Origin: Pristiophorus japonicus
Taxonomy: Eukaryota
DNA length: 64,000 nucleotides
Assembly: GCF_044704955.1 (NCBI RefSeq)
Contig: NC_091989.1
Location: 98,580,001 to 98,644,000 of the forward strand
Direction of reading: 5' to 3'
A program made the translations under genes and the position numbers. The notes under the pieces were generated by a model. The model was not told the origin of the DNA, searched no databases, and saw only the letters and a program-made list of their open reading frames with translations. Of the stretch, positions 1 through 39,800 are shown piece by piece. Every line of letters begins with the position of its first letter. Position 1 is the stretch's first letter.

Positions 1-1640
1 TTGTGGTGAATAGGTCGTGCTTCTGGGACCAAGTGGATCCACACCTTCACCCTGGAAAAGTTTCCAATGCCTGGCTCAAAAAGGGATGGAAATTTGTTAA
101 GAACCTGGGTACATGAGGCTTCATCGACATGTGATAGCGCTCGGAGGTGATTCCAGTTCTAGCAGATTTTTCCCAGCCAGCTCGTTCTAAGCAGTGTGGG
201 GCCATCGCCTGGGACAATCCAGAGTGGCAGTTCGTGCACCATGCCCTCGTAGGTGACCTTGACCATGGCGCTGCCCAGGACAGTGCTAAGCTCTTTGGTG
301 TACGTTCTCAGTTTTGTGTGAATGGGGCTCAGGGCTGGTCTGAATGCCTTGTTGCACCACAGTCTCTCAAACATCTTTTTACTCATGATGGATTGGCTCG
401 CGCCACTGTCCAGTTCCATGGCTATGGGTAAACCATTCAATTTTATGTTTAGCATTATAGGTGGACATTTCATCGAAAATGTGTGCACCCTGTGTACTTC
501 AGCATCTGCCTCCTCTCTCTGAGACTCAAAATTGCTTTGATCTACCATGGGCCGATCTTCCTCTGCCACGTGGTGGTTAACAGGTTTTGCAGAGCTTGCA
601 GCTCGTTTGCAAGTTCGTTGGAGGTGCCCCATTTTTCCACAGCTCTTGCAAACATACCCTTTGAAGTGGTATGAATAGGCTGAATGGAAGCCTCCACAGT
701 GCCATCAAGGTGTGAATTGCCTTGCATTCATCCTTTGTTGGGGACTCTGAGTCATCTGGGTCACCTGAGGCCTGCTGGCAGTTGCAGACTTGTGGTTTCT
801 GCCCTGTACATTTCTGTTTGCAAACACAGTTCCAGTTAATTTATGAACATTGCTTGTACTTGTGTGCTGAGAGATTTGTTTGGTGTTATCCCTGGTGGAC
901 ATAAACGCCTGTGCTTTCGCAATGGCCTTACTGAGGGTCGGTGTCTCTACAGTCAAAAGTTTTCGTAGGATGGTCTCGTGGCCAATGCCCAGTACAAAAA
1001 AGTCTCTGAGCATTTGCTCCAGGTAGCCATCAAACTCACATTGTCCTGCAAGTCGCCTTAGCTCAACGACGTAGCTCGCCACTTCCTGACCTTCAGATCG
1101 CTGGCTCGTGTAGAACCAATACCTTGCCATCAGCACGCTCTCCCTCGGGTTAAGATGCTCCCGCACCAGTGTACACAGCTCCTCATACAGCTCATCTGTG
1201 GATTTCACCGGAGCCAGAAGATTCTGCATGAGGCTGTAGGTCGGTGCCCCGCAGACTATGAGGAGGACCGGTCTCCTTTTTGCAGCGCTTCCTTCTCCAT
1301 CCAGCTCGTTAGCTACAAAGTACTGGTCTAGCCGTTCGACATAGGCTTCCCAGTCCTCACCCTCCGAGAACTTCTCCAGGATGCCTACAGTTTGCTGCAT
1401 CTTTGCGTTGGATTCGTATTCTCGTTGGCAGTTATTGTGTTCCTAACACAGATGAGGCTGCACACAGGGAGGTTAAAGTAACAGTGACCTCAGTCTTTAA
1501 TAAGACACTCCAGAGTGAGGAACAGGCCTTCGGGGCCGGCTTATATACAGTGCTCCCAAGGGATGCTGGGATCCCTTGGGACTTCAGTGGATGAGGTCCC
1601 TGGTGGTGGAACTTGGGAGTGCATGCTTTACAGATACACA
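1..1640 (-). mobile_element. Gypsy (Mag-like) LTR retrotransposon, 5' part: LTR, PBS, gag, protease; runs off the window start
   Basis: LTR about 1433-1640, starting TG on the minus strand. Degenerate PBS TGCCAACGAG at 1421-1430. Gag-like ORF 705-1400 (WEAYVERLDQYFVAN), protease ORF 159-632 (MELDSGAS). Interrupts the 3' part of an RTE LINE. Confidence 0.9.
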
Positions 1641-4600
1641 ACAGCTTTGAGGGTGTCCTTGTAGCGTTTCCGCTGCCAACCTTTGGCTCGTTTGTCATGA
1701 AGGAGCTCCGAGTAGAGCAGTTCCTTTGGGAGTCTTCTGTCTGGCATGCAGACTATGTGACCTGCTCAGCGGAGCTGATCAAGTGTGGTCAGTGCTTCAA
1801 TGCTGGGGATGTTAGCCTGAATAAGGACGCTGATGTTGGTGTGCCTGTCTTCCCAGGGGATTGGTAGGATCTTGCGGAGACATCGTTGGTGATATCTCTT
1901 CAGCAACTTGAGATGTCTACTATATATGGTGCATGTCTCTGAGCCATACAGGAGGGCAGGTATTACTACAGCCCTGTAGACCATGAGCTTGGTGGCAGTT
2001 TTGAGGGCCTGGTCTTCAAACACTCTTTTCCTCAGGCGACCGAAGGCTGCACTGGTGCATTCGTCGTCGATGCCTGCTCTTGTTGATAGGAGGCTCCCGA
2101 GATATGGGAAGTAGTCCACGGTGTCCAGGGCTGTGCCGTGGATGTTGATGACTGGGGGGCAGTGCTGTGCGATGAGGACAGGCTGGTGGAGGACCTTTGT
2201 CTTATGGATGTTTAGCGTAAGGACTATGCTATCATACGCCTCAGTAAATACATCGACTCTGTCCTGTAGTGCAGCCTCTGTATGTGCGCAGACGCAGGCA
2301 TCGTCCGCGTACTGTAGCTCGATGAAAGAGGTTGGGGTGGTCTTTGATCTGGCCTTGAGAAGGCGCATGTTGAACAGCTTCCCACTGGTTCTGTAGTTTA
2401 GTTCCACTCGACTATGAGGTGGAGCATGGCGGCGAGAAAGATTGCGAAGAGGGTTGGGCCAATGACGCAGCCCTGTTTGACCCCAGTCCGGACGTGGATT
2501 GGGTCTGTGATGAATCTGTTGGTAAGGATCATGGCCTGCATGTCGTCGTGGAGCAGGTGGAGGATGGTGATGAACTTTTGGGGGTATCCAAAATGGAGGA
2601 GGACACACCATCGGCCCTCGCGGTGACAGTGTCAAAGGCCTTTATAAGTTTGAAGAAGGCCATGTATAAGGGCTGGTGCTGTTCCCTGCATTTTTCCTCT
2701 ATGCTGCAAAAACCATGTCTGTTGTAGGCCAAAGGGGACAAAATCCGCACTGTGACTCCGGGACGAGCTCCTCGGCCATGGAAAGAAGATGGTTAAGTCG
2801 GACTCAGCGACAACTTTCCCAGTGACTGATAGCAGGGAGATTCCTCTGTAGTTGCCGCAGTCAGATTTGTCCCCTTTTTTAAAGATGGTCACGATTACTG
2901 CATCTCTGAGATCTCCCTGCATGCTCTCCTCCCTCCAGATGAGAGAGATGAGGTTGTGTATTCGCGCCAGCAGTGCCTCTCCACCATACTTCAATGCCTC
3001 AGCAGGGATTCCATCCGCACCTGTAGCCTTGTTGTTTTTGAGCTGTCTTATGGCTTTTTCTACCTTGTGCAGTGTTGGGGTCTCACTGAGGTGGTGGTGG
3101 GTAGCATGCTGCAGGATGGAGTCGAGAAAACTCGAGTAAAAAGCAGAGTCTCAATTGAGGCGATCTTCGAAGTGTTCCTTCCAGTGGGCCCTGACTGCCT
3201 CGGTGTCCTTGATGAGTGTTTCCCCGTTCTTGAGGTGGGGCCTTGTGTATTGGGCGTGTAGGTGGTCTTGACTGCGATGCAGAATCCTCGCACATCATGG
3301 TTGTCGGCCAGCTGCTGTATCTCCTGTCCTTTCTTCAACCGCCACCTGTGCTTTAGGTCCCGGGTTTTTTGTTGGACCTCAGTCTTGAGCCATCTCTAAT
3401 GCTGTTTTGCTGCTCCCGCATTGGGTTATTGTTTATGGCTCAGAAATGCCCTGCGCTTGTGATCTATTAGCTCATGGATCTCCTGATCATTATCATCAAA
3501 CTAGTCCTGGTGTTTCCTGATTGAGTGACCAAGTGTCTCTTAGCAGGCACTGATTATGGAGGGCAGACCAAGCGCTGTGGGCATTCTGCGTCTTGGGGTT
3601 GTCAAGGCACTCCAGGTTAGATGTGAGGCGCTGGCGATATAGAGCTCTCTTAGCTGGGTCCTTATGTGCCCCGGCATTGACTTTTTTGGGACACTGCTTC
3701 TGCTGCCCCCTCCGCTTTGGGGCTATGTTGATGTCGATGATGGATCAGATTAGGCGGTGGTCCGTCCAGCAGGCGTCGGATTCCGTCATGGCGCGGGTGA
3801 TGCACACATCCTTGCGATCCCTGGCTCGGACGATGACATAGTCGAGCAAGTGCCAGTGCTTGGAGCGAGGGTGTTGCCACAATGCCTTCTATTTGTCCCT
3901 CTGGCGGAACAAGGTCTTGGCGATGACAAGTTCGTGCTCTAGACATTTTGTCAGGAGTAGGGTACCACTGGAGTTGGCTTTCCCTACCCCCTCTCTGCCA
4001 ATCACACCCCCCCAGAGGTCTGTGTCCTTGCCAACTCTGGCGTTGAAGTCACAGAGGAGGATCAGTTTGTTGCCCGCGGGGACGCAGGACAGGGATTTTT
4101 CGGGGTTGGAGTAAAAACCCTCTTTGGCCTCATCTGTTGCATCGAGTGTCGGGGTGTATGCACTGATGACTGTGGCGCACTGGTTTTGGGATAGGGGTGA
4201 GTCGAAGAGTCATGAGGTATTCGTTAGTCCTGCAGGGGGAGTCTTTGAGGCAGTCACCAGCTCGTTTTTGATGGCGAAGCTGACTCCGTGGAGGTGGCAT
4301 TCTTCTTCTGGTTTCCCTTTCCAGAAGAAGGTGTAACCTCCACCTTGTTCCTTGAGCTGGGCTTCCCCTGCCCACCGGGTCTCGCTTAGGCTGGCGATGT
4401 CAATATCAAAGCGTCTAAGTTTCTGGGCAACTATGGCGGTGCGGCGTTCCGGCCTGTCACTGTTGGGGTTGTCCATGAGAGTCCTGACATTGCAGGTCCC
4501 AAACTTCATGTTAACGGTGTGGAAGATGCATGTGCGTGAGTTCTTTTAACATGGGGTGGTCGTTGCACACTGGTTACCACATGGGCTTAGATGAGCGAGG

Positions 4601-4680
4601 TCTTGATCCAGTGGCAAGGGGGTCCAAGATGACTGGAGAACAGGCACTGCTATATGGGCCTGGTTGCCTGCGACGAGATG
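1641..4680 (-). mobile_element. RTE-clade LINE, near full length, frameshifted (APE endonuclease + RT)
   Basis: ORF pieces MKFGTCNVRTL...SLSETRW (APE), KKGDKSDCGNYRGISLL and ELQYADD (RT). The 3' end is cut by the Gypsy LTR at 1640. Confidence 0.92.
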
Positions 4681-5059
4681 TTCGCCACTGGGTTGCACCC
4701 TTGGTGGTAGGTGATCCGAGGCCTAGTTGGGGAGGGTTAGTGGCCTACCGGGGTTCAGGGTGGGAGGCCAGGGGGGTCACAGCCATGGAACTCATCACGT
4801 GTTGGAGGAGGAAAAGAGGCCAAGTTGCCGGTGGGGAAGGAGAGCTCCAGTCGATGCTGAAGAAGGAGGGGAGGCCAGTCACCGATGTGGGAGAGGGGGA
4901 CCCGGTTGTCGTTGAGGAGAAGGTCATCTGTCGCCACGGGAGGTCCAGCCGTCATCGAGGAGGCCCAGATTCTGTTGTGGAGGAGAGGCCCATCCGCTGG
5001 AGGTATTCCGGTCGCTGGAGTGGGGGGGTGGAAGCCCGATAGCCAGGTGCAGGTCGAGG

Positions 5060-5450
5060 GTGCCACCTCCGGAGGTCGCCGGGGGACATCGGAGGTCGTC
5101 AATGGGTGAGGTGGTGAGAAGCCTGTGGTAGGCCCGGTCAGCCCGAACTCGTGGAACTCGTTGGAGGTCGTCGGGGGACGTCGGAGGTCGCCGGGAGATG
5201 CCGGAGGTCATCGGAGATCACCGGGGGACGCAGGAGGTTGTTGGAGGTCGCGGGGGCTGCTGGTGGTCATTGGAGGTCATCAGGGAACGTCGAGGGGTGA
5301 TGTGGTGCGAAGCCTGCGGTAGGCCCGAATGGCCCGAACTCATGGGACTCGCCGGAGGTCGTCGGGTGTTGCCGGAGTTTGTTGGAGTTTGTTGATCGGC
5401 GATTTGGTAGGAAGCCTGAGGTAGGTCCGAGTGGCTTGAACTCGTGGGAC
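5060..5450. repeat. Degenerate ~20-bp GC-rich tandem repeat (GGAGGTCGCCGGGGGACATC-like), probably in the RTE 5' region
   Basis: Repeated ggaggtcg(c/t)cgggg units, plus a longer unit containing gaagcctg.ggtaggcccg that recurs three times. Confidence 0.6.
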
Positions 5451-6586
5451 TCGCAGGGTTGGGACTAGGGTAAGGGGTAAAGGTTTGGGTTTACGTGCTT
5501 AGACCCCCTATCAGGGTCTATTTGGTTTGGGAGTTTTAGACAGCGGGAGGGGGGGAGGTTGTGGGGGGGAAAGTTGCCGAGATCTGTTGGGAGTTGTTTG
5601 GAGCAGGGGAGCTTCCTAGGGTCCTACTACCTCGGCGGCCATCTTGACATACACCACATAATTGAATGGTGCTGGTGGCGAGGTGGGTAGGACACAGGTG
5701 AGTGAAGGAGAGAAGCGGGGTGGTGCTGACCGGCTGTGTGGTGCCGGGTATCAGCAGCGGGCCCTGAGGCTGCCGGCACAGGGTCACTCATACGATCCAT
5801 AGACTGTGCATGTGCTATACTGGCCATTGCTTATGTCAGGCAAATCACATTCACACGAACACGCCCGCTGTAAGCGGTGCAGACTGCACCCAATGTTTAA
5901 ATAGGGAGCCCGATCCCATCCGGGTAATTATAGACAAGCTAACATGGCTGACAAACCTCCTAGAATTCTTTGAGAAGGTAGCAGGCATGGTCGATGAGGG
6001 AAATGTGGAGGATTTAGTGTACATGGACTTTAGGAAAGCATTTGACAATGCTGAGTTAAGAAAGGTTTTTCAGAGTGGTTAAAATTTGCTCGTGACTTTC
6101 TACAGAGTTCAGTTCTGGAGTTACTTCACTTCATTGTGCATATCAATAATTTGGACATAGGCCTAGAGAGAGTTGTATCCAAATTTGAAGATGAAAGCAA
6201 ATTAGGAGGAATAGATAATTCTTCAGATAACTAAAGAAAGCTGCAAAGAGATTTATACAAGATGGGAGAATGGGCTAAAAAGTGGCAACTGAAATTCAGA
6301 GGGATTTGGGGGCAGAAATTCATCAGACATTAAAAGCAACACCTCAGGTTGATCAGGCTATAAAAGAAGCTAATGAAATTCAAAGTTTGTTCAAAGGTTG
6401 AATATAAAAGTCAAGAGATAATGATGAGCCAATATAAAACTTTAATGAGACCTCAGAGTCTTGTATGCAGTATTGGGATCCACACTATAGTAAGGATAGT
6501 GAGGCTTTATGGAAGGTCCAATGCAGTTTCATTGGGATGTCGCCTGGCATGAGTAATTACAAATATGAGAAAAGGCTTGAAAATAG

Positions 6587-7383
6587 GGGGGCTGAAATTG
6601 TCCCTTTCCTAAAGCCTGTTATCTCCGAAAATCGTCAGCCACGCTGCGGAGTGGAGTGGCCACCAATTTTTCGTGGAATGGCCGCTGCTAGCCCAATTAC
6701 CCTCCCGAGTTTTCCCAGCGGAACCCCAAGTCCCCCCTTAGCGCTCTGCTGCTGCCGATCCACGGTAAGCACGTCATCACCGTGCGCACCGCCGGTCAAA
6801 ACCCCCGACGGTGACATTCCCCTCAGAAAATCTTCGGCCTGCCCGGCGCTGCCAAAACCTGTTTTTCCGGGTGGTCCAGTGAGGCTGTGGCCTTCTGCAG
6901 TGGCGGTGCAGCTTCCCTTAAAGGGCAGGGCCTACTGCCGCTGCCGCCATGTATTTTTTTGTCGCCCGACTGCTATGTCGGCATGACATTTATGCCCCAG
7001 GTTCGGCCGGGCCACCGACAGGCAGCCTGACACCCCCTCTTGCCCGGCCAGAACCCTCCCTGGTGGCCCAGTGGACCAAAGTTTTAAAGGGGCGGAGGCT
7101 CTTCCCTTTAAGTGAAGGGAGAGCGGTGGTGATGTGGCGAGATGATGATGTCACCGCGGCGGTCACTCTGTACCACCCCCAACTTCCGCCTCTCAGTTGC
7201 TGTCACCACCGTGTTTCTGCGTCTCAGGTGTTGTCACCGCCCCCATTAAGACCAACTTCCGGATCAAAACAAAAAAAACAAAGAGCCGAATGTTGCTCAA
7301 GGGTGACCTGAACCGCAGGTGCGGTACGAACCATTGAAACAGGGTGTGGGTGCTCCGTTTCCGGCGGGGGCCAATTTCTCCCC
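6587..7383. mobile_element. Non-autonomous DNA transposon (Harbinger-type MITE)
   Basis: Imperfect TIRs GGGGCTGAAATTG / CAATTTCTCCCC. CpG-rich interior; interrupts a CR1. Confidence 0.65.
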
Positions 7384-7440
7384 ATGGGTCTTTATTTTCA
7401 TTAGACTAAGAGATGATAGGATTGAAATGTTTAAAATACT

Positions 7441-8195
7441 GTGCTCAATTTTTCCCAGTGATTGGCACCGTTTTCTTGGGGCAAGCTGCTCTTTTTGGCC
7501 TAAGTTGAAAAACCAGTTTCCCCAATCAATGTAACTCAGTTCGTTGCGATTTTTTTAAGTCAGTTTATTTTTTAGCCAAAGAGGGCGTAACCAGCCACCT
7601 ACACCACTTCTGGCCATTTTGGGAAGTTTGGCCAGCTGAGAGTTACTCCAGTTCTGATTAGGCCAGCGTATGTGGCCTCTCCAGAAAAATCTTCCCAGAG
7701 TTAAGGAAATCGGTGCGGGTAAGGAAACCGGCGCAGCAGATGCCCAGACAGTGAAAGAATTGAAAAACACATAGCAGCAACTTATCGCCAAACCCGCCCG
7801 AAGGCTGTCCGGTCCCATTCTTGTCCGGTCCTATTCTCGGTCCCCGGTTCACACAGAGAGAGAGAGAGGGACCAGACTGGCAAGCTCTTCGGGTGGGGTT
7901 GGAGGTAAGTTGCTGTTGTGTGTTTTTCAATTCTTTTAATGTGTTGGGAACTGGCTGTATGCTTCACTTTGCAGCCTCACCTCGCATTGTGTCCCTGGTT
8001 ACCATGGCAGCCCAATCTTTTTGGTGCAGATTAAGGCTCCATCCCCAAAACTAAAGGTTGGGTTAGGTCATGCCAAAATGAAGAAATCCAACGAGGAAAC
8101 TTAGAAAAATTTTTTTTTGCCGTACTTGGGTCCTAAAAAAATCAGGTGCAACTCTTCAAGTATGGCAAAAAAATACTTTGGGGAAAATTGAGCCC
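7441..8195. mobile_element. Non-autonomous DNA transposon (Harbinger-type MITE)
   Basis: TIRs GTGCTCAATTTTTCCCA / TGGGGAAAATTGAGCCC. CR1 sequence continues on both sides. Confidence 0.7.
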
Positions 8196-9744
8196 TATGA
8201 AAGGGTGGGGCAGAGTAGATAGAAGCAGACTGTTTCCAGTGGTTGAGGGGTCAAAATGAGGGACCATGGATACAAAACTAAATGCAAGAGATTTAGAACA
8301 GAGAGTGTAGAAAAATCTGTGTAGTGAGGCTGTGGAATTCGTTTCCAGGGTTAGTGGTTGAAGCAGAAACTACATCAACAGGAATCGGTAGATGAAGGAA
8401 AAGGGGTTGAAGGGATGTTGGAACAGAGTCGGTAAATGTGATTAGAACTATTTGCTCGTGTGGACGGTAAATGCCAACATGGACAGGTTGGGCCGAATGG
8501 CCTGTTTCCATGTTGTAACTTCGATGTATTTATATGTATAAAGTATAAATTAAACGGCATTCATACTCCTGACTGGGCCTTCACCGCTGGGATGGAGGGA
8601 GTGTGGAACTAGGTCTGAGAACCACGAAAAGAGGTCGACCTGGATTTTCCCAACCTATGGCAGTGATAGAATCCTGCCTGTCCACATGATCCCACTACAA
8701 CATATTCGCATTCTCCTTGGGGCAACCTGATTCAATATGCAGGCTGGGATTTCAGAAACAATGCTGCTCCTGGATGGGTCTTTGCCGCTGGAAGCGAGGG
8801 AACGTGGAACGAGCGACAGCAGTTAAAAGGCTGCTGCAGGGGAGCAAGAGAGACAGAGCTAAAGCTGCACTTGATCATTGAAGTATGATAGCAGAACGAG
8901 GAGAACTCTCTGGGATGAGGATCCATACTGACCAAGTCCACAAGATACTCAGAAGCTGCAGTGGAGATAATGCTGCCAGAACTATGGCCAGGGAGTTGTG
9001 CTCCGTGTGCTGGCCGTCTGGAGGGAGATGCCACTGACTGCCAGTGCCAAACCTATGACCCCAAACCAGCTATTCAATGCCAGATACATTTTGCTGACCT
9101 CACCAAGCTGGCAGTGTTAAGTGAAGCAGCAAATGTCCATGCAGATGTGGAGATACTGCTGGAAATATGACTTACCACCAACCATCCATGACCACATAGT
9201 GTAACAGAAGAAATAAATGGGACCATTAGTAGGCACAAGAGACCCCACCATCCCCCTTCGTTGGTTCACCTACTCTCCTACTAGTCAACTGTCCCAGATC
9301 ACATTTCCTGAAATACTTGAGTGAGAAGTGAAGAGATTGCTGCATTGCCTGCACCTGAGAGCATGTTCACAAGGGAATGTCTGCAGACATCTGGGTATCT
9401 AGACATTGTAAATTAGTCCCGTGTTATCCAATAGACATTGATGACGAGCCACAGGTGAGGTTATGGCGACACCGATTTAGCCCCATGCACTAATTTTAGT
9501 AGAAACCGCCTTACACACACTCACACCATACAGGTCAATGTATTTCCCGTGTATATTTTCTGAACAAACATATCACCATTCAGTAACCCAGGAAGTAAAG
9601 CACTCCCAACGATCAACAATACTCACACTCCGCTTTCCATCTCACCGTTTTACCAACAAACGATCAAAAATGTTAAAGTACACGTGCACACGTTTCCTTG
9701 TCGTGAGCAGGGGATTGATCTCCAATTCCATCTTCCTCTTATAT

Positions 9745-10310
9745 AACAACATAAGAAATAGGAGCAGGAGTAGGCCATTTAGCCCCTCGAGCCTGCTCCA
9801 CCATTCAATAAAATCATGGCAGATCTGATCTTGGCCTCAACTCCACTTGCCTGCCCACTCCCCATAATCCTTAACTCACCTATCGTTCAAAAATCTGTCT
9901 ATCTCCACCTTAAATATATTCAATGACCCAGCCTCAACAGCTTTCTGGGGTGGAGAATTCCAAAGATTCACGACTGTCTGAGAGAAGAAATTATTTCTCA
10001 TCTCTGTTTTAAATGTGTGACCCCTTATTGTGAAATTATGTCCCCTAGTTTTAGATTCCCTCACTAGGGAAAACATCCTCTCAGCATCTACACTGTCAAG
10101 CCCCCTCAGAATCTTTTACATTTCAATAAGATCAACTCTCATTCTTCTAATCTCCAGTGAATATAGGCCCAACCTGCTCAACCTTTCTTCATTAGTCAAC
10201 CCGTTCATCTCAGGAATCAACCTAGTGAACATTCTCTGAACTGCGTCCAATGCAAGTATATCCCTCCTGAAATAAGGAGACCAAAACTGCATGCGGTACT
10301 CCAGTGCTCT
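9745..10310 (-). mobile_element. CR1 LINE 3' fragment
   Basis: C-terminal RNNFFSQTVVNLWNS and QFWSPY motifs, and a CR1 3' tail. Confidence 0.88.
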
Positions 10311-10594
10311 TCTACATTCAATGCTTGGAAAGTCCAATCCCTTTGTAATGCCCAAAATATGGGAGATGCAGCAAGTCACTACATTTCAGGAAACCCTTGC
10401 TGGGCTATATTGCAGGAGGGCCCAGTAGAGAGAGCGACCTGCCCAGGCATCAGAAACTGCACATGAGAATATTGATGGTGTTCCACAATAATCCTAGTCG
10501 CCCAAGGCCTCAGTGAACCTGGTTTTAGCCACTGTCTTAGATTCCCAAAAAGGCTGAAGTGGCTTCCCTGGTTGAGCTGTACAGCTATCCTGGA

Positions 10595-10865
10595 TTCTCA
10601 TTCTCTCTCCCTCTCTCTCTCTCTCCCTCTCCCTCTCCCCCTCTCTCTCTCTCTCTCTCTCTGGGCCCTCNNNNNNNNNNNNNNNNNNNNNNNNNNNNNN
10701 NNNNNNNNNNNNNNNNNNNNNNNNNNNNNNNNNNNNNNNNNNNNNNNNNNNNNNNNNNNNNNNNNNNNNNNNNNNNNNNNNNNNNNNNNNNNNNNNNNNN
10801 NNNNNNNNNNNNNNNCCCCCTCTTGCTGGGTCCTCCTGTAAATCTGTTTCTCTCTCTCACTCTCT
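10595..10865. other. (CT)n microsatellite spanning an assembly gap (N run 10671-10815)
   Basis: 145 N's flanked by CT repeats. Confidence 0.97.
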
Positions 10866-10896
10866 GCTGTTACCTTCACAGTCACAGTCCTGGTGG

Positions 10897-11625
10897 AATG
10901 TGTCTTTTTTTTTTATTCGTTCTGGGATGTGGGCATCGCTGGCAAGGCGGTGGAGGGAGTGATTGTTGAAGGTGGTGGATGGTGTGCCAATCAAGCGGGA
11001 TGCTTTGTCCTGGATGTTGTCGAGCTTCTTGTGTGTTGTTGGAGCTACACTCATCCAGGCAAGTGGAGAGTATTCCATCATACTCCTGACTTGTGCCTTG
11101 TAGATAGTGGAAAGGCTTTAGGGTGTCAGGAGGTAAGACACTCGCCACAGAATACCCAGCCTCTGACCTGCTCTTGTTGTCACAATATTTATGTGGCTGG
11201 TGCAGTTAAGATTATGATCAATGGTGACCCCCAGGATGCTGATGGTGGGGGATTCGGTGATGGTCAGACCATTGAATATCAAGGAGAGGTGGTTAGACTC
11301 TCGCTTGTTGAAGATGTTCTTTGCCTGGCACTTATGTTACTTACCACTTATCAGCCCAAGGTTGAGTGTTATCCAGGTCTTGCTGCATGCGGGCATGGAC
11401 TGCTTCATTTTCTGAGGAGTTGCGAATGGATCTGAACACTGTGCAATCATCAGCAAACATCCCCACTTCAGAACTTATGATGGTGAGATGGTCATTGATG
11501 AAGCAGCTGAAGATGATTGGTCCAAGGACGCTGCTCTTAGGAACGTCTGAAGCAATATGCTGGGGCTGGGATAATTGACCTCCAACAACCACAACCATCT
11601 TCCTTTGTGCTGGGTATGACGCCAG
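10897..11625 (-). mobile_element. CR1-group LINE 3' fragment (second family), inserted in a Harbinger transposase remnant
   Basis: VPKSSVLGPIIFSCFIND...GMFADD and MEYSPLAW motifs. The 3' end reads GCCCACATCCCAGAACGAATAAAAAAAA. Confidence 0.8.
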
Positions 11626-11930
11626 CCAGTCAGATTCCAATAGCTGGCACTTCTCTGTGATGGTATCAGAGGGAAATCGCAGTCTTCTCAGACACTGCCT
11701 ATCGGAAAAACCCAGACATGTCCTCCATCGTCTGTAGACCCTGTGATTTGGATACCCACAGGTCGAGTGTTGCCTTTGTACATGCTGCTGTTCTCTCTTG
11801 GTTTCCATCCTTTCCTCCCCCATGTCCTCATCAACCTTCTCCTCAAAGTTCAGACACAATGGAATCTCCAGAGAGTAATCCATTATTTTGCTGTGCTGAG
11901 CTCCTTTTAAATTCTCCGCAAGTTTCACAA
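11626..11930 (-). pseudogene. Harbinger transposase (HARBI1-like) N-terminal remnant
   Basis: HRVYRRWRTCLGFSDRQCLRRLRFPSDTITEKCQLLESD. Resumes at about 10862-10896 (VTVKVTA) across the LINE. Confidence 0.75.
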
Positions 11931-12074
11931 GTGCCTTTCGATGCTCAGAAACTGCATCTTAAAACTAGTGGAAGTGACTCTAGTCAAAACAATGTTGTAG
12001 AATTTCACTCGTGTGTGATGGGTCACCTTCCCAATCTGTTCCTGCCGGTGGGTCACCTGACATGCTCAGCACCA

Positions 12075-12558
12075 CCATCTTTTCAACAGCAGTGATTGGA
12101 TAGGGCACCAAGACCCTTTCACACATCACCCCTCTGCTCGCTGACCGACAATGGCTCCCGGCTCAGCAACACTTCAATTTTAAAATTCTCACCCTCATGT
12201 CCACATCCTTCCATGGCCTTGCCAATTCCTCCAGTCCTACAGCCCTCTGTGAACTCCAACTCAGGTCTCTTGTGCCTCCCCGACTCCCGTTGCTCCACCA
12301 TTGGCAGCTGTGCCTTAAGCCGTCTAGGCCTCAGGCTCTGGAATGCCCTCCAGAAACCGCTCGGCCTCTCCACCTCTCTCTCCTCCTTTAAGCTGCTCCT
12401 TAAAACGTGCATCAAGACAAAGCTTTTGGTGACCTGTCCTCATGACTCATTCTTTGGCTCGGTGTCAGATTTTGTCTGATTCCGCTCCGTGAAGTGCCTT
12501 GGGACGTTTTACTACATTAACAGCGCTATATAAAGGCAAGTTGTTCTTATTGTTGTTG
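12075..12558 (+). mobile_element. L2 LINE 3' fragment
   Basis: RLWNAL...SFKLLLKT motif and an L2 tail (GTGAAGTGCCTTGGGACG...GCTATATAAA) followed by (TTG)n. Confidence 0.82.
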
Positions 12559-12779
12559 TGATGAGTGGACGGAAATGCTGGGAAATCTCAGAGGACCCTT
12601 GGTCATGTCCCTGCTTCATTTTGATGCAGTGGGACGGGCTTCTGGGGTGGATCGGGGCACAGCAGGGTCTCGGGAGGAAATTCAAGTTGGCCATTTTATT
12701 AAAGCAAGAGTTTCAGCAGAGGGCCTCTCCCACTCATTGCACTCACCAGACCATCTCAAGCCCCTCTGAAAATAAACAT

Positions 12780-12785
12780 TTTATT
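12780..12785 (-). terminator. Candidate polyadenylation signal AATAAA of the GAIN-domain gene
   Basis: AATAAA on the minus strand about 125 nt after the TAA of the candidate last exon, with GT-rich sequence downstream. Confidence 0.45.
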
Positions 12786-12908
12786 GAAGCGTAATACAGC
12801 CCGCGTTTCCGCGAGTCCACCTAGAGGTCAAGCCGCCCCCGATGGCAATGGTGTAAACATTTCAGATATTGGGGTGGGAGGGTCATAAAATATTTTGCAG
12901 AGGGGGCT

Positions 12909-12935
12909 TTAAAACCTGAGCAGAGCCCCACTGGA
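12909..12935 (-). CDS. Candidate terminal coding exon of the GAIN-domain gene (SSGALLRF*)
   Basis: Acceptor ttctcgctgcag closes a 94-nt GT-AG intron (12936-13029) in phase 0. TAA follows after 8 codons, then AATAAA. Confidence 0.45.
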   Translation of the reverse strand, partial: SSGALLRF

Positions 12936-13029
12936 CTGCAGCGAGAATGTGAAACCAGTCTGGTCTCCCAGGATAATGTAAAGTTATATTGAAGTTTAGT
13001 TATACTGTAATGATGAACATTATTCATAC

Positions 13030-13127
13030 CTTTGATTCCAGTGTTTCAGCAAAGAAGAAGCCCAAACGGTCACACCTGCAGGTGATGTTGTTGTCTCCTG
13101 TCTGAATGTAACATCCATTCGGATTGA
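13030..13127 (-). CDS. Adhesion-GPCR-like (ADGRG-like) exon, GPS motif second half: (V)NPNGCYIQTGDNNITCRCDRLGFFFAETLESK
   Basis: Acceptor ctctccattacag, donor AAG|gtatga, 98 nt, phase 1 to 0. Carries the GC...TCxCxxL.xF pattern of a GPS. Confidence 0.85.
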
Positions 13128-13221
13128 CTGTAATGGAGAGTTACTAATTATCAGAATCATGACCTCATTTACATATTCCAGTACTGATTGATGTCAGCAT
13201 TTTATAAAACTCTTTATTTAC

Positions 13222-13264
13222 CTGTTTGTCCAGAATCCAAGAAGCCGCACACTGGAGGATTTGG
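13222..13264 (-). CDS. Adhesion-GPCR-like exon, GPS motif first half: PNPPVCGFLDSGQT
   Basis: Acceptor cttctccattttag, donor CAG|gtaaat, 43 nt, phase 0 to 1. Matches the short PxCxFWD exon of ADGRG genes. Confidence 0.83.
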
Positions 13265-13548
13265 CTAAAATGGAGAAGATAAATCTTATCATTAGATTGA
13301 CCAGCACTAAAACAGTTTAATCAGCTGTGTAAGTGCTTAAACAGTGAGACATTTTCATTTACCTGAGTAACGGGATGAAGCATAGAATTAGGAGGAACTG
13401 TAGCGCTGGCTGTGAAATAAATGTTTCTGTATTTTCATTAATATCACAAAAAGTGGACAGTGCCTTTATGGAACTTGGGAAGTAATTTTACTGAAATGGG
13501 GACCATGCTACTGAAGTAAAGGTGACAGGTCCAAAACTCTGCGTCCCT

Positions 13549-14197
13549 CGGGCTGTAAATGGAGCATTTTTTGGGCGGACGGGATGAAAAAAGGGGCATC
13601 GCCCGGTTACACCGAGTCCCTGCCCTTCTTCTGATGGTCTGAAGTTCTGGCCATGCTGGGGTCGGCCTATTGATGTCACACAAATGAGGAAAATAGAATT
13701 ACTTTCATTGAAGTACTTTCTTCTAATCGTGCCCTAGTAATGCTGGGGTACAAGGGACGTTCTGTGATCAATTGCATTTCGTAAAGTGGCAAAACTAGAA
13801 CGTAATCATTTTCAATGAATCTTTCCCCACACCTACACAAGCCTGATTAAATAGGGGCACTTCACCTAAGGTGGGCAACCTGTTGTACCAAGAACGTGTA
13901 GGGTATCCACAGGCAATATGTAAATACCCCTGAGACCAGAGGCCAGGGCCGCATCCACGGGGTGGGCAAAAGTTGTGTCCTGTCCCAGATCCTCCCTTCT
14001 AAAGTCTCCATAGATATTTCAGGGCGCAAGTGAAGGAAAATATGTCACAAGACCCAATTTTCCTAATTTGCAAGGCATCATAATATGGCCACACCCCCAT
14101 CATGATCAGAACTTCTGACGGGCATTAAAGAGGTGAGGAGATCCGCTACAAATTCTGCCTCACCTGCCCAGAAAGTGCCCCATTTACAGGCCTCGGG
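13549..14197. mobile_element. Degenerate intronic MITE
   Basis: Inverted termini GGCTGTAAATGGAGCATTTTTTGGGCGG / CTGCCCAGAAAGTGCCCCATTTACAGGCC. Confidence 0.6.
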
Positions 14198-14338
14198 CCA
14201 TGAATGTCAGGGTCATTCAGCCGAACTTCCACATTTACACTGGAGATTATAATACAGACTGTGCGGCACAACTCCAATCCCATAAATGGCCACACACACA
14301 GACGGTGAGGTCTATGATACTGTTCGGTTTTATCTTAC

Positions 14339-14452
14339 CTCCCACTGCAACACGCCATGAAATGTAACTGTCAGAGGGGATGTGAGGTCATCAATGCTCG
14401 AACTCCCTACTCTGATTATAATGTTTGGTGAAACAGGGCTCCTTTCCTGACC
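14339..14452 (-). CDS. Adhesion-GPCR-like GAIN subdomain B exon: GQERSPVSPNIIIRVGSSSIDDLTSPLTVTFHGVLQWE
   Basis: Acceptor ttttttgtgttgttatag, donor GAG|gtaaga, 114 nt open, phase 0 to 0. Contains the GAIN-type IxxLxxPxxxxFxH motif. Confidence 0.85.
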
Positions 14453-15721
14453 CTATAACAACACAAAAAATAGTTACTGAAAATCTACTGATTTAGGATT
14501 AATTACACACAGAAACATTTCAATGATGTTCATTCTGTGGCGATGGTGAGCAGTGCAGGTTTATCAGTGTAACAAATATTTTCTTGGGGACTAAAATTCC
14601 GGGAGGCCTCCTTGCCGGCAGAAGTGCGGTGACCCACAACTCCAAGCCGCCCATGAAGCCTTCTGTAGACCCTGTCCCAAATTGCGGTGAGGGAGCCATT
14701 AACACGTAAAAGCACAGCAGTGATGCCCCCATCCCAGTCCGCCCAGAAAGTCAGAGTGACACCATGCCCAGACACAGGTCTAGAAATTTGGGTGCCCCCA
14801 TTTTTGGGCATGTGGGGCATGCTGGATGCATGCCTTGTGCCCGAATGGTGAGGCCCAAGGTGCCACCGATTTTGGGCCTTGGGCCTCATTACAAAAGGAG
14901 CCAGCATGATGCAACAGTCGCCAGGCGGAGAGAAGACCAAGATCAGGCCGTTGGTCGAGTCGCAGCGACCCTCAGGTAAGTGAAGCCGGGGGTCGGGTCA
15001 GAGGCTGGGGTAAAGGATCGGAGGGTGAGTCAGGAGGATGGGGGGTTGGATTCGGAGGCTGAGGGGGGTGGAATGGGGGGTGGGATCTGGAGCTGCAGTA
15101 ACCAGAAGGGAGGGAGCAGTGGTGTGCTTTTGTAAAATGTGGGTCAGGAGGAGCACTCCTATTCCTCTGGGCTCCATATTCAGGTAAGTAATTGTGAAAA
15201 GCTTACCTTGTAGTGTCACTGGAGGTCCCAAGGTCTGGTTTTACTGAGCGCAGGCAGCGCTGACTGCCTCAGGGCAAATTAATCTTAAAGTGAGGCCCTC
15301 AAACAGGCGTTAGGCCCCTGATTTGTATATGTAAATGGTCTAACGCTTGTTTCAGGCATGGGACCTGGATACCATTTCTTTCCTTTCCCAATCTCGCAGG
15401 CGGTGCACTTCATTCCCGCCCTATAGAGGGCTAAGTGGGCCAGTTAGAGCCTGAAAATCAGGTGCTGCACAGTCACATTTGTACACCAGAGTGGCCTGAC
15501 TCTAACTCCCAAATGGGCATCTCTGGTAAGTGATCAATCCCCAATATGATCGATTACCTGCTTCCCTACTACATTTTTGATGAATGTAAGATCGTCCTCT
15601 CTGCCCATGAGAATTGGGTCAGGATAGGATGGTCTTACAAAAATGATACAAACCTAGGAACAGTGGAGGTCCAGAGAGATTTAGGGGTCCATGTGCACAC
15701 ATCACTGAAGTGTAAGTCTGG

Positions 15722-16234: not shown

Positions 16235-17390
16235 TGTTATGTCTGCAACACCTTTTAACCAGCATTTCACCGCCACCAGAAGGTGCATCTTTTGGAGTCC
16301 CAGGGGATCCCAGGGCCCCTTGGGAGCACTGTATATAAGCAGGCCTCCCATGCTGTGCCAGCACTCTGGAGTCAGAATAAAGAGACTAATGTCACACTTA
16401 GTCAAGTCTGCAGTACTCAGTCACATTGCTTTATTTCAGACATAACAACTGGTGACGAGTAATAGATAACAAACCATCACGCAAAAATGCAGAGAACTGT
16501 TGGTATCCTGTAGAAATTCTCATAAGAGAAAGATTGAGAAGCCTTCGTGGAGCGACTCGACCAATACTTCATGGCCAATGAGGAAGGGAATGAGAACGCT
16601 GCCAAACGAAGGGCGATCCTCTGTGGGGCAACAACCTATGGCCTCATGAAGAATCTTCTTGCTCCGGTGAAACCAACAACCAAATTGTATGAAGAACTAT
16701 GTACGCTGGTCCAGGAGCACCTAAATCTGAAGGAGAACGTTCTGATACCAAGGTATCAATTTTATAGATGTCAACGATCTGAAGGCCAGGAAGTGGCGAG
16801 CTATGTCGCTGAACTAAGGTGCCTTGCAGGTCATTGCAAATTCGGTGGATTCTTGGAGCAAATGCTAAGAGACTTTTTTGTGCTTGGCATTAACCATGAA
16901 GTTATCCTTCGCAAATTATTGACTGTTAAAACACCGAACCTGAGCAAAGTCATAACAATAGCATAGGCATTTATGTCCACCAGTGATAACACCAAACAAA
17001 TTTCGCAGCATAAAGTTGCATCAGCAAGTACTGGCCACAATGTAATGTCGTTTTCAGACAGGAATGCATATGGCAGAACATACACACCTGCAGCTGCACG
17101 ATTTCAGATGACTCAGAGTCTGCCATCAAGTGTAAATGCAAGGCAATTAACACCTTGTTGGCGCTGTGGAGGTGACCATTGAACCCATCAATGCCGCTTC
17201 AAACACTATGCATGCAAAGGCTGTGGAACAATGGGACACCTCCAGCGAATGTGCAGACAAGCTGCAAACCCTGCAAACCACCACTTGGTTCCCGGTACAC
17301 GACCCATCCACCACAAGGTACGTGCAGTGCCATACATGATGCGAGAGAAGTGGAGATCTAGCTGGACAGGCTGCAACGAGAGGGCATCCG
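16235..17390 (+). mobile_element. Gypsy (Mag-like) 5' remnant: LTR, PBS, gag, internal deletion
   Basis: LTR TGTTA...TAACA at 16235-16447 and PBS TGGTGACGAG at 16450-16459. Gag with a CWRCGGDH knuckle. Jumps from the end of gag to the start of RT near 17285. Confidence 0.88.
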
Positions 17391-21400: not shown

Positions 21401-22248
21401 TTACACAACACTCAGTTTAAGATGGCCTCCCCCCTAGTTGGTTCCTCGACATATTTGTCTAGAAAACCATCCCTTATGCACTTCAGGAAATCCTCCTCCA
21501 CCGTACTGCTTCCAGTTTGGTTAGCCCAATCTATATGCATATTAAAGTCACCCATGATAACTGCTGCACCCCTAATTTCCTGTTTGATGCCCTCCCCAAC
21601 ATCACTACTACTGTTTAGAGGTCTGTACACAACTCTCACTAACGTTTTTTGCGCTTTGGTGTTCTGCAGCTCTGCCCATATAGATTCCGCATCATCCAAG
21701 CTAATGTCCTTTCTAACTATTGCATTAATCTCCTCTTTAACCAGCAATGCTACCCCACCTCCTTTTCCTTTTATTCTAACATTCCTGAATGTTGAATACC
21801 CTTGGATGTTGAGTTCCCAGCCCTGATCATCCTGGAGCCACGTCTCTGTAATCCCAATCACATCGTATCTTTTAACATCTATTTGCACAGTTAATTCATC
21901 CATCTTATTACGGATACTCCTTGCATTAGGGTACAAAGCCATCAGGCTTGTTTTTTTTAACACCCTTTGTCCTTTTAGAATTATGATGTAGTGTGGCCCT
22001 TCACACTGATGACACCCTCCATCATGATGCAGGGCACTACCATTCATACTAAATGGGATGAATTCAGAATAGATCTAGCAGCTCAAAACTGGACATCCAT
22101 GAGGCACTGTGGGCAATCAGCAGCAGCAGGATTGTATTCCATCACAATCTGTAACCGCATGGCCCGGCACATCCCTCACTCTACCATTACCATCAAGCCA
22201 GGGGACAAACCCTGGATCAAGGAGGAGTGTAGAAGATCATACCAGCAG
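18480..22248 (+). mobile_element. CR1-group LINE endonuclease fragment, split by a younger CR1 (pieces 18480-19072 and ~21998-22248)
   Basis: APE motifs LITNYHPPS and WVGDFN. The sequence resumes colinearly after the insertion, with CTT at both junctions. Confidence 0.75.
19073..21997 (-). mobile_element. CR1 LINE, ORF2 nearly complete (APE + RT), with a few frameshifts and stops
   Basis: ORFs 21412-22047 (IGITETWL, MGDFN), 19664-21118 (GVPQGSVLGP, KFTDD) and 19343-19657. Tail TTTTCTATGTT. Confidence 0.95.
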
Positions 22249-22249
22249 C

Positions 22250-23085
22250 ATCAACAACAAATTCTGTTTATCTAGTGCCTTTAACGTAGAAAAATGTCCC
22301 AAGGCACTTCGATATTATAAGACAAAAAATTTGATACGGATCCATATAAGGAGAAAATAGGGCAGGTGACCAAAAGCTTGGTCAAAGAGGTAGGTTTTAA
22401 GGACCATCTTAAAGGAGAAGAGAGAGATAGAGAGGTGGAGTGGTTTAGACATGGAATGTCAGAGTTTAGGGCCTGGGCAACAGAAGGCACAGCTTTCAAT
22501 GGTTGAGTGATTATAATCAGGGATGTTCAAGAGGGAAGAATTAAAGGAGCGCAGCTATCTCGGGGGGGGGGGGGGCAGGGTGTTGTGGAGCTGGATGAGA
22601 TTACAGAGATAGACAGGGGCGATGCCACGGAGGGATTTGAAAACAAGGATGAGAATTTTGAAATCGAGACGTTGCTTCACCGGGAGCCAATGTTGGTCAG
22701 CGAGCACAGGGGTGATGAGTGAGCGGGACTTGGTGCGAGTTAGGAAACGGCCAGCCGAGTTTTGGATCACCTCTAGTTTACATAGGGTAGAACGTTGAAG
22801 GCCAGCCAGGATTGTGTTGGAATTGTCAATTCTAGTGGTAACAAAGGCAGGGATGAGGGTTTCAGCAGCGGATGAGCTGAGGCAAGGGTGGAGACAGACG
22901 ATGTTACGGAGGTGGAAATAGGCTGTCTTAGTTATGCTGCGGATATGTGTTTGGAATTTCATTTCAGGGTCAAATAATACACCAGGGTTGCGAACAGCCT
23001 CAGACAGATGTTAGGGAGAGGGATGGAGTCAGTGGCTAGGGAACCGAGTTTAGAGACCGAAAACAATGGCTTCGGTCTTCCCAGC
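22250..23085 (-). mobile_element. L2 LINE 3' fragment
   Basis: AYFHLRNI...AETLIPAFVTTRID...HWLPVKQRLDFKIL, and an L2 tail. Confidence 0.88.
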
Positions 23086-36875: not shown

Positions 36876-39800
36876 TGTTATATATGTAAACCTGTAAATA
36901 ACTTGTTTAACCACCAGAGGGCTCATCGCCTGGAATCCCAAGGGATCCCACAATCCCTTGGGAGCGTCGGTACTTAAGGATGCCTCACAGGCTGGAGAGG
37001 CACTCTGGGGACCTGCAATAAATACAAAGGTCACACTTTACTTTGAGCTCACAGTTTCTGGTCTGACTCTTTATTCATACACTACAACTGGCGACGAGAT
37101 ACAGATATCGAACCCCACCGCAACGATGCAGAGAACAGTGGGCATCGTGGAGAAGTTTTCGGAGGGAGATGATTGGGAAATTTTCGTGGAGTGACTCAAC
37201 CAATACTTCATGGCCAACGAGCTGGAAGGAGAAGTGAATGCTGCCAAACAAAGGGCGATTCTCTTCACCGTTTCAGGGCACCAATGTATGGCCTCATGAA
37301 AAATCTGCTTGCTCCAGCAAAACCAACAGAGAAATCATAGGATAAAAGTGCACACTGGTCCGGGAGCATCTTAATCCGAAGGAAAGCATTCTGATGGCGA
37401 GGTACCGGTTCTACACATGCAAGAGGTCTGAAGGCCAGGAAGTGGTGAGCTATGTCGCCGAGCTGAGACGACTTGCAGGACATTGTGAATTTGAAAGACA
37501 TTTGGAGCACATGCTCAGGGACTTCTTTGCACTAATCATTGGCCATGAAGTAACACTCAGCAAACTTTTGACTGTAGAGACCCCAATTTTGAGTAAAGCC
37601 ACAGCGATAGCCCAGGCATTCAGCACCACCAGTGACAATATCAAGCAAATCTCTCAGCACAGAGTGCTGCTACAAGTACTGTGAACAAAGTAATGTTGTT
37701 TTCGAATCGTAATGTACAGGGCAGGCCTCACATGCCTCCAGCTACACATCCGCAGATGTCTCAGAATCCACCATCAAGGGTGATGAATGCTAGGCCATTA
37801 ATAGCTTTTTGGCGCTGCAGGGGTGATCATAATTTCCATTCATGCCGCTTCAAAGGATACGTTTGCAAGGGCTACGGAACAATGGGACATCTCCAATGTG
37901 TGTGCAGGCGAGCTGCAAATCCTGCAAACCACTATGTTGCAGAGGAGGACAGATCCACGGTGGATCACGACGAACCAGAGCCTCAGACCGAGGAGGCAGA
38001 GGTATATGGGGTGCACACATTTACCACAAAGTGTCCCCCGATAATCGCTAAAAGTTGAATTAAATGGACTCCCGGTGTCAATGGAGCTGGACACGGGTGC
38101 GAGCCAATCCATTATGAGCAAAAAGACTTTCGATAACTTGTGGTGCAGCAAAGCCTTAAGGCCAGTCCTGTCTCCCATTTGAACTAAACTGAGAACTTAC
38201 ACAAAGAAATTGATTCCCGTAATCGGCAGTGCTATTGTAAAGGTCTCCTACGATGGAGCGGTGCACAAGTCCGCTCTGGGTGGTACCGGGCGATGGCCCC
38301 ACGCTACTCAGCAGGAGCTGGCTGGGGAAGATACGCTGGAACTGGGACGACGTCCGAGCGCTCTCACGTCAACGAAAGTTCATGTGCCCAGGTCCTAAAA
38401 AAGTTCCCCTCGCTATTCGAACCAGGAATCGGGAAGTTCCAAGGAGCAAAAGTGCAGATCCACCTAATTCCTGGGGTACGACCCATCCACCACAAGACGA
38501 GAGCAGTACCATACATGATGAGATAGAGGGTGGAGATCGAGCTGGACCAGCTGCAATGAGAGGGCATCATTTCGCCGATCGAATTCAACGAGTGGGCCAG
38601 TCCAATTGTTCCAGTCCTCAAGGGAGACGGCACGGTCAGAATCTGTGGTGATTACAAAGTAGCTATCAATTGTTGCTCGTTGCAGGATCAAGACCCACTA
38701 CCAAAGGCAGACAACTTTTTTGTGACGCTGGCGGAAGGAAAGACGTTCACGAAGCTGGACTTGACCTCGGCTTACATGATGCAGAAGCTGGAGGAATCAT
38801 CGAAGGCCCTCACCTGCATCAACACACACAAAGGCCTCTTCATCTACAACAGATGCCCATTTGGGATTCGATCAGCCGCGACGATATTCCAGAGAAACAT
38901 GGAAAGCTTACTGAAGTCAGTCCCATACACCGTGGTCTTCCAGGACGACATCTTGGTTACAGGTCGGGACACAGTCGAGCATCTGCAGAACCTGGAGGAG
39001 GTTCTTAGTCGGCTTAATCGTGTGGAGCTCAGGTTAAAATGCTCATTTTCCTGGTGCCTGAGGTGGAGTTCCTGGGGAGAAGAATCGCGGCGGACGGCAT
39101 CAGGCCCACCGATTTGAAGATGGGGGCAATCGAGAACGCACCGAGGCCACAGAACGCGATGGAGCTGCTTTCATTTCTAGGACTCCTGAACTAATTTGGT
39201 AACTTCTTACCGGGTTGCAGCACACTTTTAGAACCACTGCATGCTTTACTGTGTAAGGGAAATGAATGGGTATGGGGTAAAAGCCAAGAAAATGCCTTTG
39301 GAAAAGCTAGAAAACTGTTATGCTCAAACAAATTGCTTGTGTTGCATGATCCATGTAAGTGTTTGGTACTAGCATGTGATGCATTGTCATACGGTGTCAG
39401 GTGTGTGTTGCAACAAGCTAATGAATCTGGGAAATTGCAACTGGTTGCTTATGCATCCAGAAGTCTGTCTAAGGCTGAGAGAGCCTACAGCCTGATTGAA
39501 AAAGAAGGGTTAGCGTGTGTTTATGGGGTAAAGAAAATGCATCAATATCTGTTTGGCCTCAAATTTGAATTGGAAACTGACCATAAGCCCCTGATATCCC
39601 TCTTTTCAGAAAGTAAGTAGATAAATACGAATGCATTGGCCCGCATCCAGAGATGGGCGCTCATGTTGTCCGCATACAACTATGCCATCCGCCACAGGCC
39701 AGGCACAGAGAACTGTGCTGATGCTCTCAGTAGGTTACCATCGCCCACCATGGGGGTGGAAATGGTACAGCCCGCAGATTTAGCTGTGGTAATGAAAGCA

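Follow-up and report, generated by a model that had tools for sequence, protein, structure and literature searches.

Probable internal exons of an ADGRG-derived tandem-GAIN gene in the shark Pristiophorus japonicus, with a candidate early terminal exon downstream

Four internal exons of an ADGRG-derived tandem-GAIN gene of sharks most probably (at odds of about two in three) lie in the window, that is, the whole 64,000-nucleotide stretch of DNA analysed here; the transcript of this gene would splice from position 13030 on the minus strand to a distant linker exon past the left edge of the window. The gene would run from a signal peptide through a pentraxin/PLL-like domain, a first GAIN domain (GAIN1), an S/T-rich linker and a second GAIN domain (GAIN2) to a membrane anchor. 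In its main transcript, the donor at 13030 would be joined to the linker exon left of the window, across more than 13 kb of intron. The acceptor at 12935 and the AATAAA hexamer behind it, which a preliminary description had proposed as a possible end of the gene right after the GPS, would then be intronic look-alikes, or would give at most a minor isoform; what looks like an early stop probably reflects a cryptic splice signal. The identity of GAIN1, the exon phases, the degenerate first GPS (GPS1) and the architecture of the homologues are read directly from sequence, and we infer the downstream exons of the window copy.

Exons and repeats in the window

All four exons lie on the minus strand. 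Two GAIN1 subdomain-B exons of 38 codons and phase 0-0, exon a (24132-24019; 31/38 residues identical to the homologue P0006, HMM iE 1.4e-23) and exon b (14452-14339; 30/38, HMM iE 4e-26), the latter being the query by which the tandem-GAIN family was found, are separated by a repeat-rich intron of 9,566 nt (24018-14453, from the exon coordinates), 41% of which is under window-internal repeats. These are followed by exon c (13264-13222; 43 nt, phase 0-1, 11/14 identical to P0006, located by tblastn), which carries the first GPS cysteine, and by the GPS exon (13127-13030; 98 nt, phase 1-0, 26/33 identical), which carries the degenerate site C-R-C-D-R-L|G, scores 23.2 bits against a Pfam GPS cut-off of 22.5 and closes in phase 0 at the donor G|GTATGA at 13029. 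Spliced together (24132-13030), the exons give 123 codons free of stops and frameshifts, with canonical GT-AG at every junction and all four cysteines retained. Their product aligns without gaps to GAIN1 of P0006 (98/123 identical), as against 37/92 for GAIN2 of the same protein, and on sequence comparison the window exons encode the first (outer, distal) of two tandem GAIN domains. The presence of a GAIN domain is indicated both by the Pfam GPS match above the cut-off and by the match of the GAIN2 profile to the product (iE 2.4e-13). A segment equal to exon a is precisely skipped in the models P0009 and P0015.

Segment HMMs built from the homologues and run over the whole 64 kb recovered the three control exons at 1e-17 to 1e-26, while the nine others (signal-peptide, PLL-like, GAIN1-A, linker, GAIN2 and TM segments) gave no credible new match there. 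GAIN2 profiles produced only cross-matches to the known exons of the window, and 7TM tblastn over the window reached E=0.11 at best. No TM, 7TM, linker or GAIN2 exon was thus detected in 1-13029 by segment HMMs and tblastn, in agreement with the preliminary description, which had seen no TM exon in the remaining downstream DNA; likewise, segment HMMs found no family exon upstream of 24132 within the window (39.9 kb, 24133-64000). Judging from these searches, the distance to the preceding exon would exceed 39.9 kb and that to the next one 13 kb, provided that both exist. Nothing can be concluded from the lack of exons in the 13 kb downstream: 39.9 kb of upstream DNA likewise lack the preceding exon, and the gene has an internal intron of 9.6 kb, so that multi-kb introns do occur in it. 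Of the 21 shark models, six (from four species) end at the boundary immediately before exon 24132, start after it or go astray there, which is consistent with a very long intron there or with partial duplicates. Intron lengthening through repeats has been reported in sharks in the accessible part of a preprint (bioRxiv 10.1101/2025.06.08.657570).

The downstream DNA had been called almost all TE-derived; LINE/LTR ORF remnants are visible in it, and window-internal repeats cover 47% of 1-12564. An inverted repeat copy (12564-12105 against 22237-22736, 66% over 504 nt) marks where repeat-matching DNA resumes downstream of the GPS exon. Degraded gag/pol remnants of LTR retrotransposons with stops and frameshifts, presumably of Gypsy type, lie at 160-1450, 16250-17250 and 37100-39700, and two adjacent copies of a GC-rich non-LTR element with endonuclease/RT remnants, which we take to be Tx1-like, lie at about 41300-49700 (plus). 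Nuclease remnants, assumed here to be Harbinger-like, occur at 63800-61600 and 36700-36470 (minus); related sequence forms the spurious tails of the models P0012 and P0013, which were set aside as candidates for the window locus, since the identity of these repeat-derived tails to the window is only 35-64%. A search for 7TM exons had also been advised for the 145-N gap at 10671-10815; an exon hidden there is unlikely, since both gap flanks match one copy of a GA-microsatellite-bearing repeat, the other copy of which lies at 36590-36362. Additionally rejected were 13409-13363 as a candidate exon, together with further frames bounded by AG and GT, all of which have stops or the wrong phase and match no homologue, and the segment 9248-9174 (minus), which by eye resembles TM3 of adhesion receptors (aGPCRs) and has neither a Pfam nor a 7TM tblastn match.

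Homologues, architecture and the two GPS sites

The homologue searches (3 of 10 candidates, 3 representatives, and 15 of 2783 and 19 of 7999 scored) returned 22 distinct proteins, of which 21, from nine shark species, were kept and one, a weak frog ADGRF5 match, was left out. All are automated gene models, several of which are fragmented, end in repeat-derived sequence or may be chimeric (tandem array), and they are named 'uncharacterized' or 'ADGRG2/3/4/5-like' in RefSeq/UniRef (P0001, P0005, P0006, P0008, P0014, P0017 and others). The tandem-GAIN homologues share 47-80% identity with the window over 123 codons, as well as its exon boundaries and its degenerate GPS1; the 5′ and 3′ parts of the window copy lie outside the window. 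The nearest among those returned is P0006 of P. japonicus itself, with the same four cysteines and 80% identity over 123 codons; within the limited sensitivity of the searches, none was identical to the window exons. These word-limited searches turned up no member from rays, chimaeras or bony fishes, and the shark range is therefore provisional. Pfam scans of the 21 shark homologues found no REJ, PLAT or polycystin channel domain, the marks of polycystin-1 (PKD1/PKD1L) GAIN proteins.

In P0006, a signal peptide predicted by eye, a weakly matching pentraxin/PLL-like region, GAIN1, an S/T-rich linker, GAIN2, one TM helix and a short tail follow one another. Pfam finds two GPS stretches, the GAIN2 profile matches P0006 twice (iE 5.5e-20 and 1.5e-115), and the Atlas model of its residues 185-412 superposes on ADGRG2/G4 GAIN models at TM 0.81-0.83, both sides being predicted and the whole-protein pLDDT being 0.55. 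Furthermore, the halves of P0001 align to each other (27% over 202 aa, E=5e-16), and the GAIN duplication in the family is clear from these sequence matches and the predicted GAIN-like fold. The N-terminal region matches PLL weakly: P0017 gives a full-length PLL match (E=0.021, below the cut-off), none of ten other homologues gives any, and the Atlas leads to pentraxin/PLL ADGRGs score only 0.81. A PDB search with alignment A2 gave 0 matches; sequence searches of the PDB with the GPS exon alone and with P0003 gave, respectively, one spurious match and only contactin at E>=0.01, and were discarded.

Thirteen of the 21 homologues align through the end of the GPS exon, and what follows it is a conserved linker in 11, a different S/T-rich linker in P0018 and an unrelated 12-aa tail in P0003. 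An S/T-rich linker thus comes next in twelve; 11 of the 13 go on as far as a canonical GAIN2, and in none does the exon lead into a TM helix. The phase-0 boundary after the GPS exon is confirmed by P0002, another isoform of the P0003 gene, which differs from P0003 by an inserted 39-residue linker before the same tail. The preliminary description had started from the rule that TM1 comes no more than about 25 residues after the GPS. This premise does not apply to a GPS that belongs to the distal GAIN1: the exon ends GAIN1, and the homologues go on into the linker rather than TM1. In P0018 (Chiloscyllium plagiosum), a 7TM member, S/T-rich tandem repeats expand the inter-GAIN linker and a GAIN1 exon segment is duplicated.

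The two GPS sites differ in their residues. According to the accessible text of PMC13197933, the cleavage consensus is His-Leu/Ile-Ser/Thr, and the distance from the membrane affects cleavage efficiency. In the window, GPS1 reads R-L-G rather than H-L-T/S, and GAIN1 is probably uncleaved, since both the His and the Ser/Thr nucleophile are missing. None of the 12 homologous GPS1 motifs compared has H-L-S/T, ten have Gly at +1, and the outer GAIN carries no Stachel-like TxFAVLM. GPS2, by contrast with GPS1, reads H-L-T in 12 of 12 models, a motif from which self-cleavage of GAIN2 may be expected. The uncleaved GAIN1 would then act as a spacer or binding module, with the pentraxin-like tip above and the self-cleaving GAIN2 below. 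The window GAIN lacks two features of aGPCRs, the position directly before the 7TM and the cleavage triad/Stachel, and because of these two it is filed under the ADGRG-derived shark family and not as a conventional aGPCR GPS.

Among the 12 models with a complete GAIN2, seven end in a single TM helix and a short tail (two from P. japonicus, four from Chiloscyllium punctatum, one from Scyliorhinus canicula; one hydrophobic segment, end 55-61 residues past the GPS), four carry 7tm_2 (Heptranchias perlo, C. punctatum, C. plagiosum, Stegostoma tigrinum), and P0007 has a different end of 51 residues. A 7TM region is hence present in 4/12 complete models and absent both from the nearest homologues and from the window. 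The single-pass TM/tail is conserved across three shark genera (32/54, 27/52 and 21/51 identities), and it shares only 10-12 identities over 26-34 residues with TM1 of the 7TM paralogues. This conservation between genera, together with the dissimilarity to TM1, argues against chance intron read-through, and comparison of these tails suggests that the single-pass forms come from dedicated genes.

In the GAIN2 tree, the 7TM type stands apart from the rest (82/87, unstarred), whereas the GAIN1 tree groups by species and places the window with P0006 (82/85, unstarred), nested among P. japonicus paralogues (85/89), on a short terminal branch of 0.084. Since GAIN1 clusters by species and GAIN2 by C-terminal type, GAIN1 cannot tell which C-terminus the window copy has; P0004 and P0005, the 1TM and 7TM models from a single species, hardly differ in GAIN1. 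This discordant clustering (P0004/P0005, P0007/P0017) suggests gene conversion or module shuffling in the tandem array, or else annotation chimeras. For the window copy itself, we favour a single TM helix with a short tail, at slightly under even odds, because the nearest complete homologues are single-pass, and we rate a 7TM end as unlikely.

The candidate terminal exon and the rival readings

The motifs named in the preliminary description lie exactly where it placed them. From the donor at 13029 to the AG at 12937-12936, a would-be intron of 94 nt (13029-12936) leads into the ORF SSGALLRF* of a candidate cryptic or alternative terminal exon (12935-12909, minus), and a candidate poly(A) signal AATAAA (12785-12780, minus) follows 123 nt past the stop, with a second copy at 12700-12695 (minus). 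The acceptor, which had been called good, is within the top 5% of 4332 AGs; in an approximate splice matrix with unfitted frequencies, its score of 1.9 is nevertheless the lowest of five, the four real acceptors scoring 2.4, 3.7, 3.9 and 5.4. A branch-point-like motif at -50 to -10, admittedly a weak test, accompanies all four real acceptors and is lacking at 12935. Two observations on the surrounding DNA led nowhere: the real intron 13221-13128 and the candidate intron, both of 94 nt, show no sequence similarity and no matching repeat, so that their equal length is coincidence and not duplication, and 12935-12570 has no convincing inverted repeat of a TIR element. Rfam over 11000-15000 gave nothing of note (one match, E=0.85).

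Of 2532 control positions, 0.4% have an acceptor, an in-frame stop and AATAAA together when limits are drawn tightly round the observation, limits that were chosen post hoc, after the data had been seen; with looser limits the figure is 1.0% (150/200 nt) and 3.8% (300/300 nt), and in 2000 local Markov shuffles the frequency of the combination is 0.45-6.4%. AATAAA by itself is present in 20% of AT-rich 250-nt stretches. Only two such candidates exist among 34 equally good downstream acceptors, that at 12935 being the nearest. A look-alike lies in the intron after 14339, with an acceptor at 13362 (score 4.1), 13 codons and AATAAA 102 nt past the stop, and a further AATAAA at 13218-13213 (minus), presumably an internal case of an unused signal, overlaps the donor of exon c (13264-13222); transcription has to cross the intron that holds it on the way to the GPS exon. 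The pattern is thus somewhat unusual and modestly suggestive, not compelling.

If the exon at 12935 and the AATAAA were used, as the main end of a 3′-truncated paralogue or as an intronic-polyadenylation isoform, the product would be secreted and would serve as a PLL-GAIN1 ligand or decoy whose GPS cannot be cleaved, an outcome that we regard as rather unlikely. What counts in its favour, and against splicing to a distant linker exon, is that acceptor, stop and AATAAA cluster in this way less often than average (0.4% under tight limits, 0.4-6% over the controls), that the cluster lies within 465 nt having no repeat match elsewhere in the window, and that it is the nearest of the two candidates. 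The paralogue models P0003 and P0002 (P. japonicus; 'isoform X2' and 'X4') are likewise annotated as ending soon after the GPS exon, without a TM helix, 12 and 51 residues on and with a shared 12-residue tail; they constitute a candidate secreted PLL-GAIN1 protein, the nearest thing to the idea of the preliminary description. In human aGPCR transcripts, premature stops commonly give soluble N termini, as stated in the accessible part of PMC11039983. Against such use of the 12935 exon stand its acceptor, the weakest of five and devoid of a branch-point-like motif, the same pattern inside an internal intron (13362) and the AATAAA at 13218 that is read through, as well as the fact that the null thresholds were fixed after the data were seen. 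Moreover, SSGALLRF resembles no homologue tail: in the peptide comparison its BLOSUM scores against the next residues are negative for all 13 homologues, the tail of P0003 included. The P0003 tail, sought in the window, scored at best 28 of 63, within repeat ORFs, and is not encoded there.

More improbable still is a reading in which the window holds only a stray piece of the tandem array, a partial duplicate or pseudogene fragment orphaned of its 5′ and 3′ parts and making no protein. Family exons are indeed otherwise absent from 39.9 kb upstream and 13 kb downstream, the family has many copies and many of its models are partial, and no identical protein was among those returned by searches of limited sensitivity; but against this reading stand 123 open codons, GT-AG throughout, all four cysteines retained and an end branch of only 0.084. 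Splicing from 13030 to a distant linker exon remains our preferred reading. As for the 7TM-less product proposed in the preliminary description, the idea is supported at the level of the family, in which 7/12 complete models are single-pass and P0002/P0003 have no TM helix; use of the 12935 exon by the window copy itself stays rather unlikely.

Relation to known receptors and meaning for the family

In current descriptions, one GAIN domain sits immediately ahead of the 7TM; aGPCR products that lack the 7TM are familiar chiefly as isoforms produced by splicing, the significance of which is debated. The shark family resembles the ADGRG aGPCRs (the ADGRG2/G4/G6 and ADGRG1/G3/G5 groups) in that the GAIN2 and 7TM of its members match ADGRG structures best (P0017: G2 6e-89, G6 4e-82, G3 8e-72, G5 2e-56; P0001: G6 1.7e-25, then G2, G1 and G3) and in that GAIN1 of P0006 is predicted to adopt the GAIN fold. 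It differs from them in having two GAIN domains in series, the outer without the cleavage triad, and in the 7/12 complete models without a 7TM. By these matches, the family appears ADGRG-derived, with no single ADGRG subfamily assigned.

Drosophila Cirl-1TM and mammalian GPR126/ADGRG6-1TM, as described in the accessible part of a preprint (bioRxiv 10.1101/2023.01.11.521585), likewise place an ectodomain with a cleavable GAIN on one TM helix with a short alternative tail, and they bind their 7TM counterparts; they are splice isoforms of a 7TM gene (by intron retention for Cirl), whereas in sharks the 1TM forms make up a GAIN2 clade of their own. By analogy, the single-pass form, which would be unable to couple to G proteins, might serve as an adhesion ligand, a co-receptor or a sheddable decoy, in partnership or in competition with a 7TM tandem-GAIN paralogue and with its ectodomain shed at GPS2, a role that, though the likeliest, we put forward as doubtful. 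Soluble N-terminus variants of aGPCRs (PMC11039983; see also PMC6667449) share with the proposal of the preliminary description a premature terminal exon after the extracellular domain; they are supported by transcripts, whereas the window offers motifs only, with a stop after GAIN1 and not after a membrane-proximal GAIN.

The tandem-GAIN family of sharks is apparently undescribed: no tandem-GAIN protein appeared in the literature searched, from which subscription journals were mostly, and supplements wholly, excluded. The words 'shark' and 'cartilag' are absent from PMC8584163, as are 'shark', 'cartilaginous' and 'two GAIN' from the accessible text of PMC13197933; the available portion of PMC12488864 holds nothing on tandem GAIN, and that of PMC12716839 treats GAIN/7TM as one module.

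At about even odds, sharks may possess an expanded ADGRG offshoot with an uncleavable outer and a cleavable inner GAIN, in which dedicated paralogous genes give three kinds of product: 7TM receptors, secreted forms with GAIN1 alone, and single-pass partners retained from the squalomorph-galeomorph split onwards. Within species, the GAIN1 modules would be homogenised. The boldest reading, that the window copy itself is a secreted member by way of the 12935 exon, is rather unlikely. Current shark annotations of tandem-GAIN loci are fragmented. If true, the family would be a natural, gene-encoded set of receptor, co-receptor and decoy, and it would allow tests of the role of GAIN when uncoupled from the Stachel and the 7TM, of the loss of cleavage in a GAIN far from the membrane, and of 1TM partners that tune 7TM receptors.
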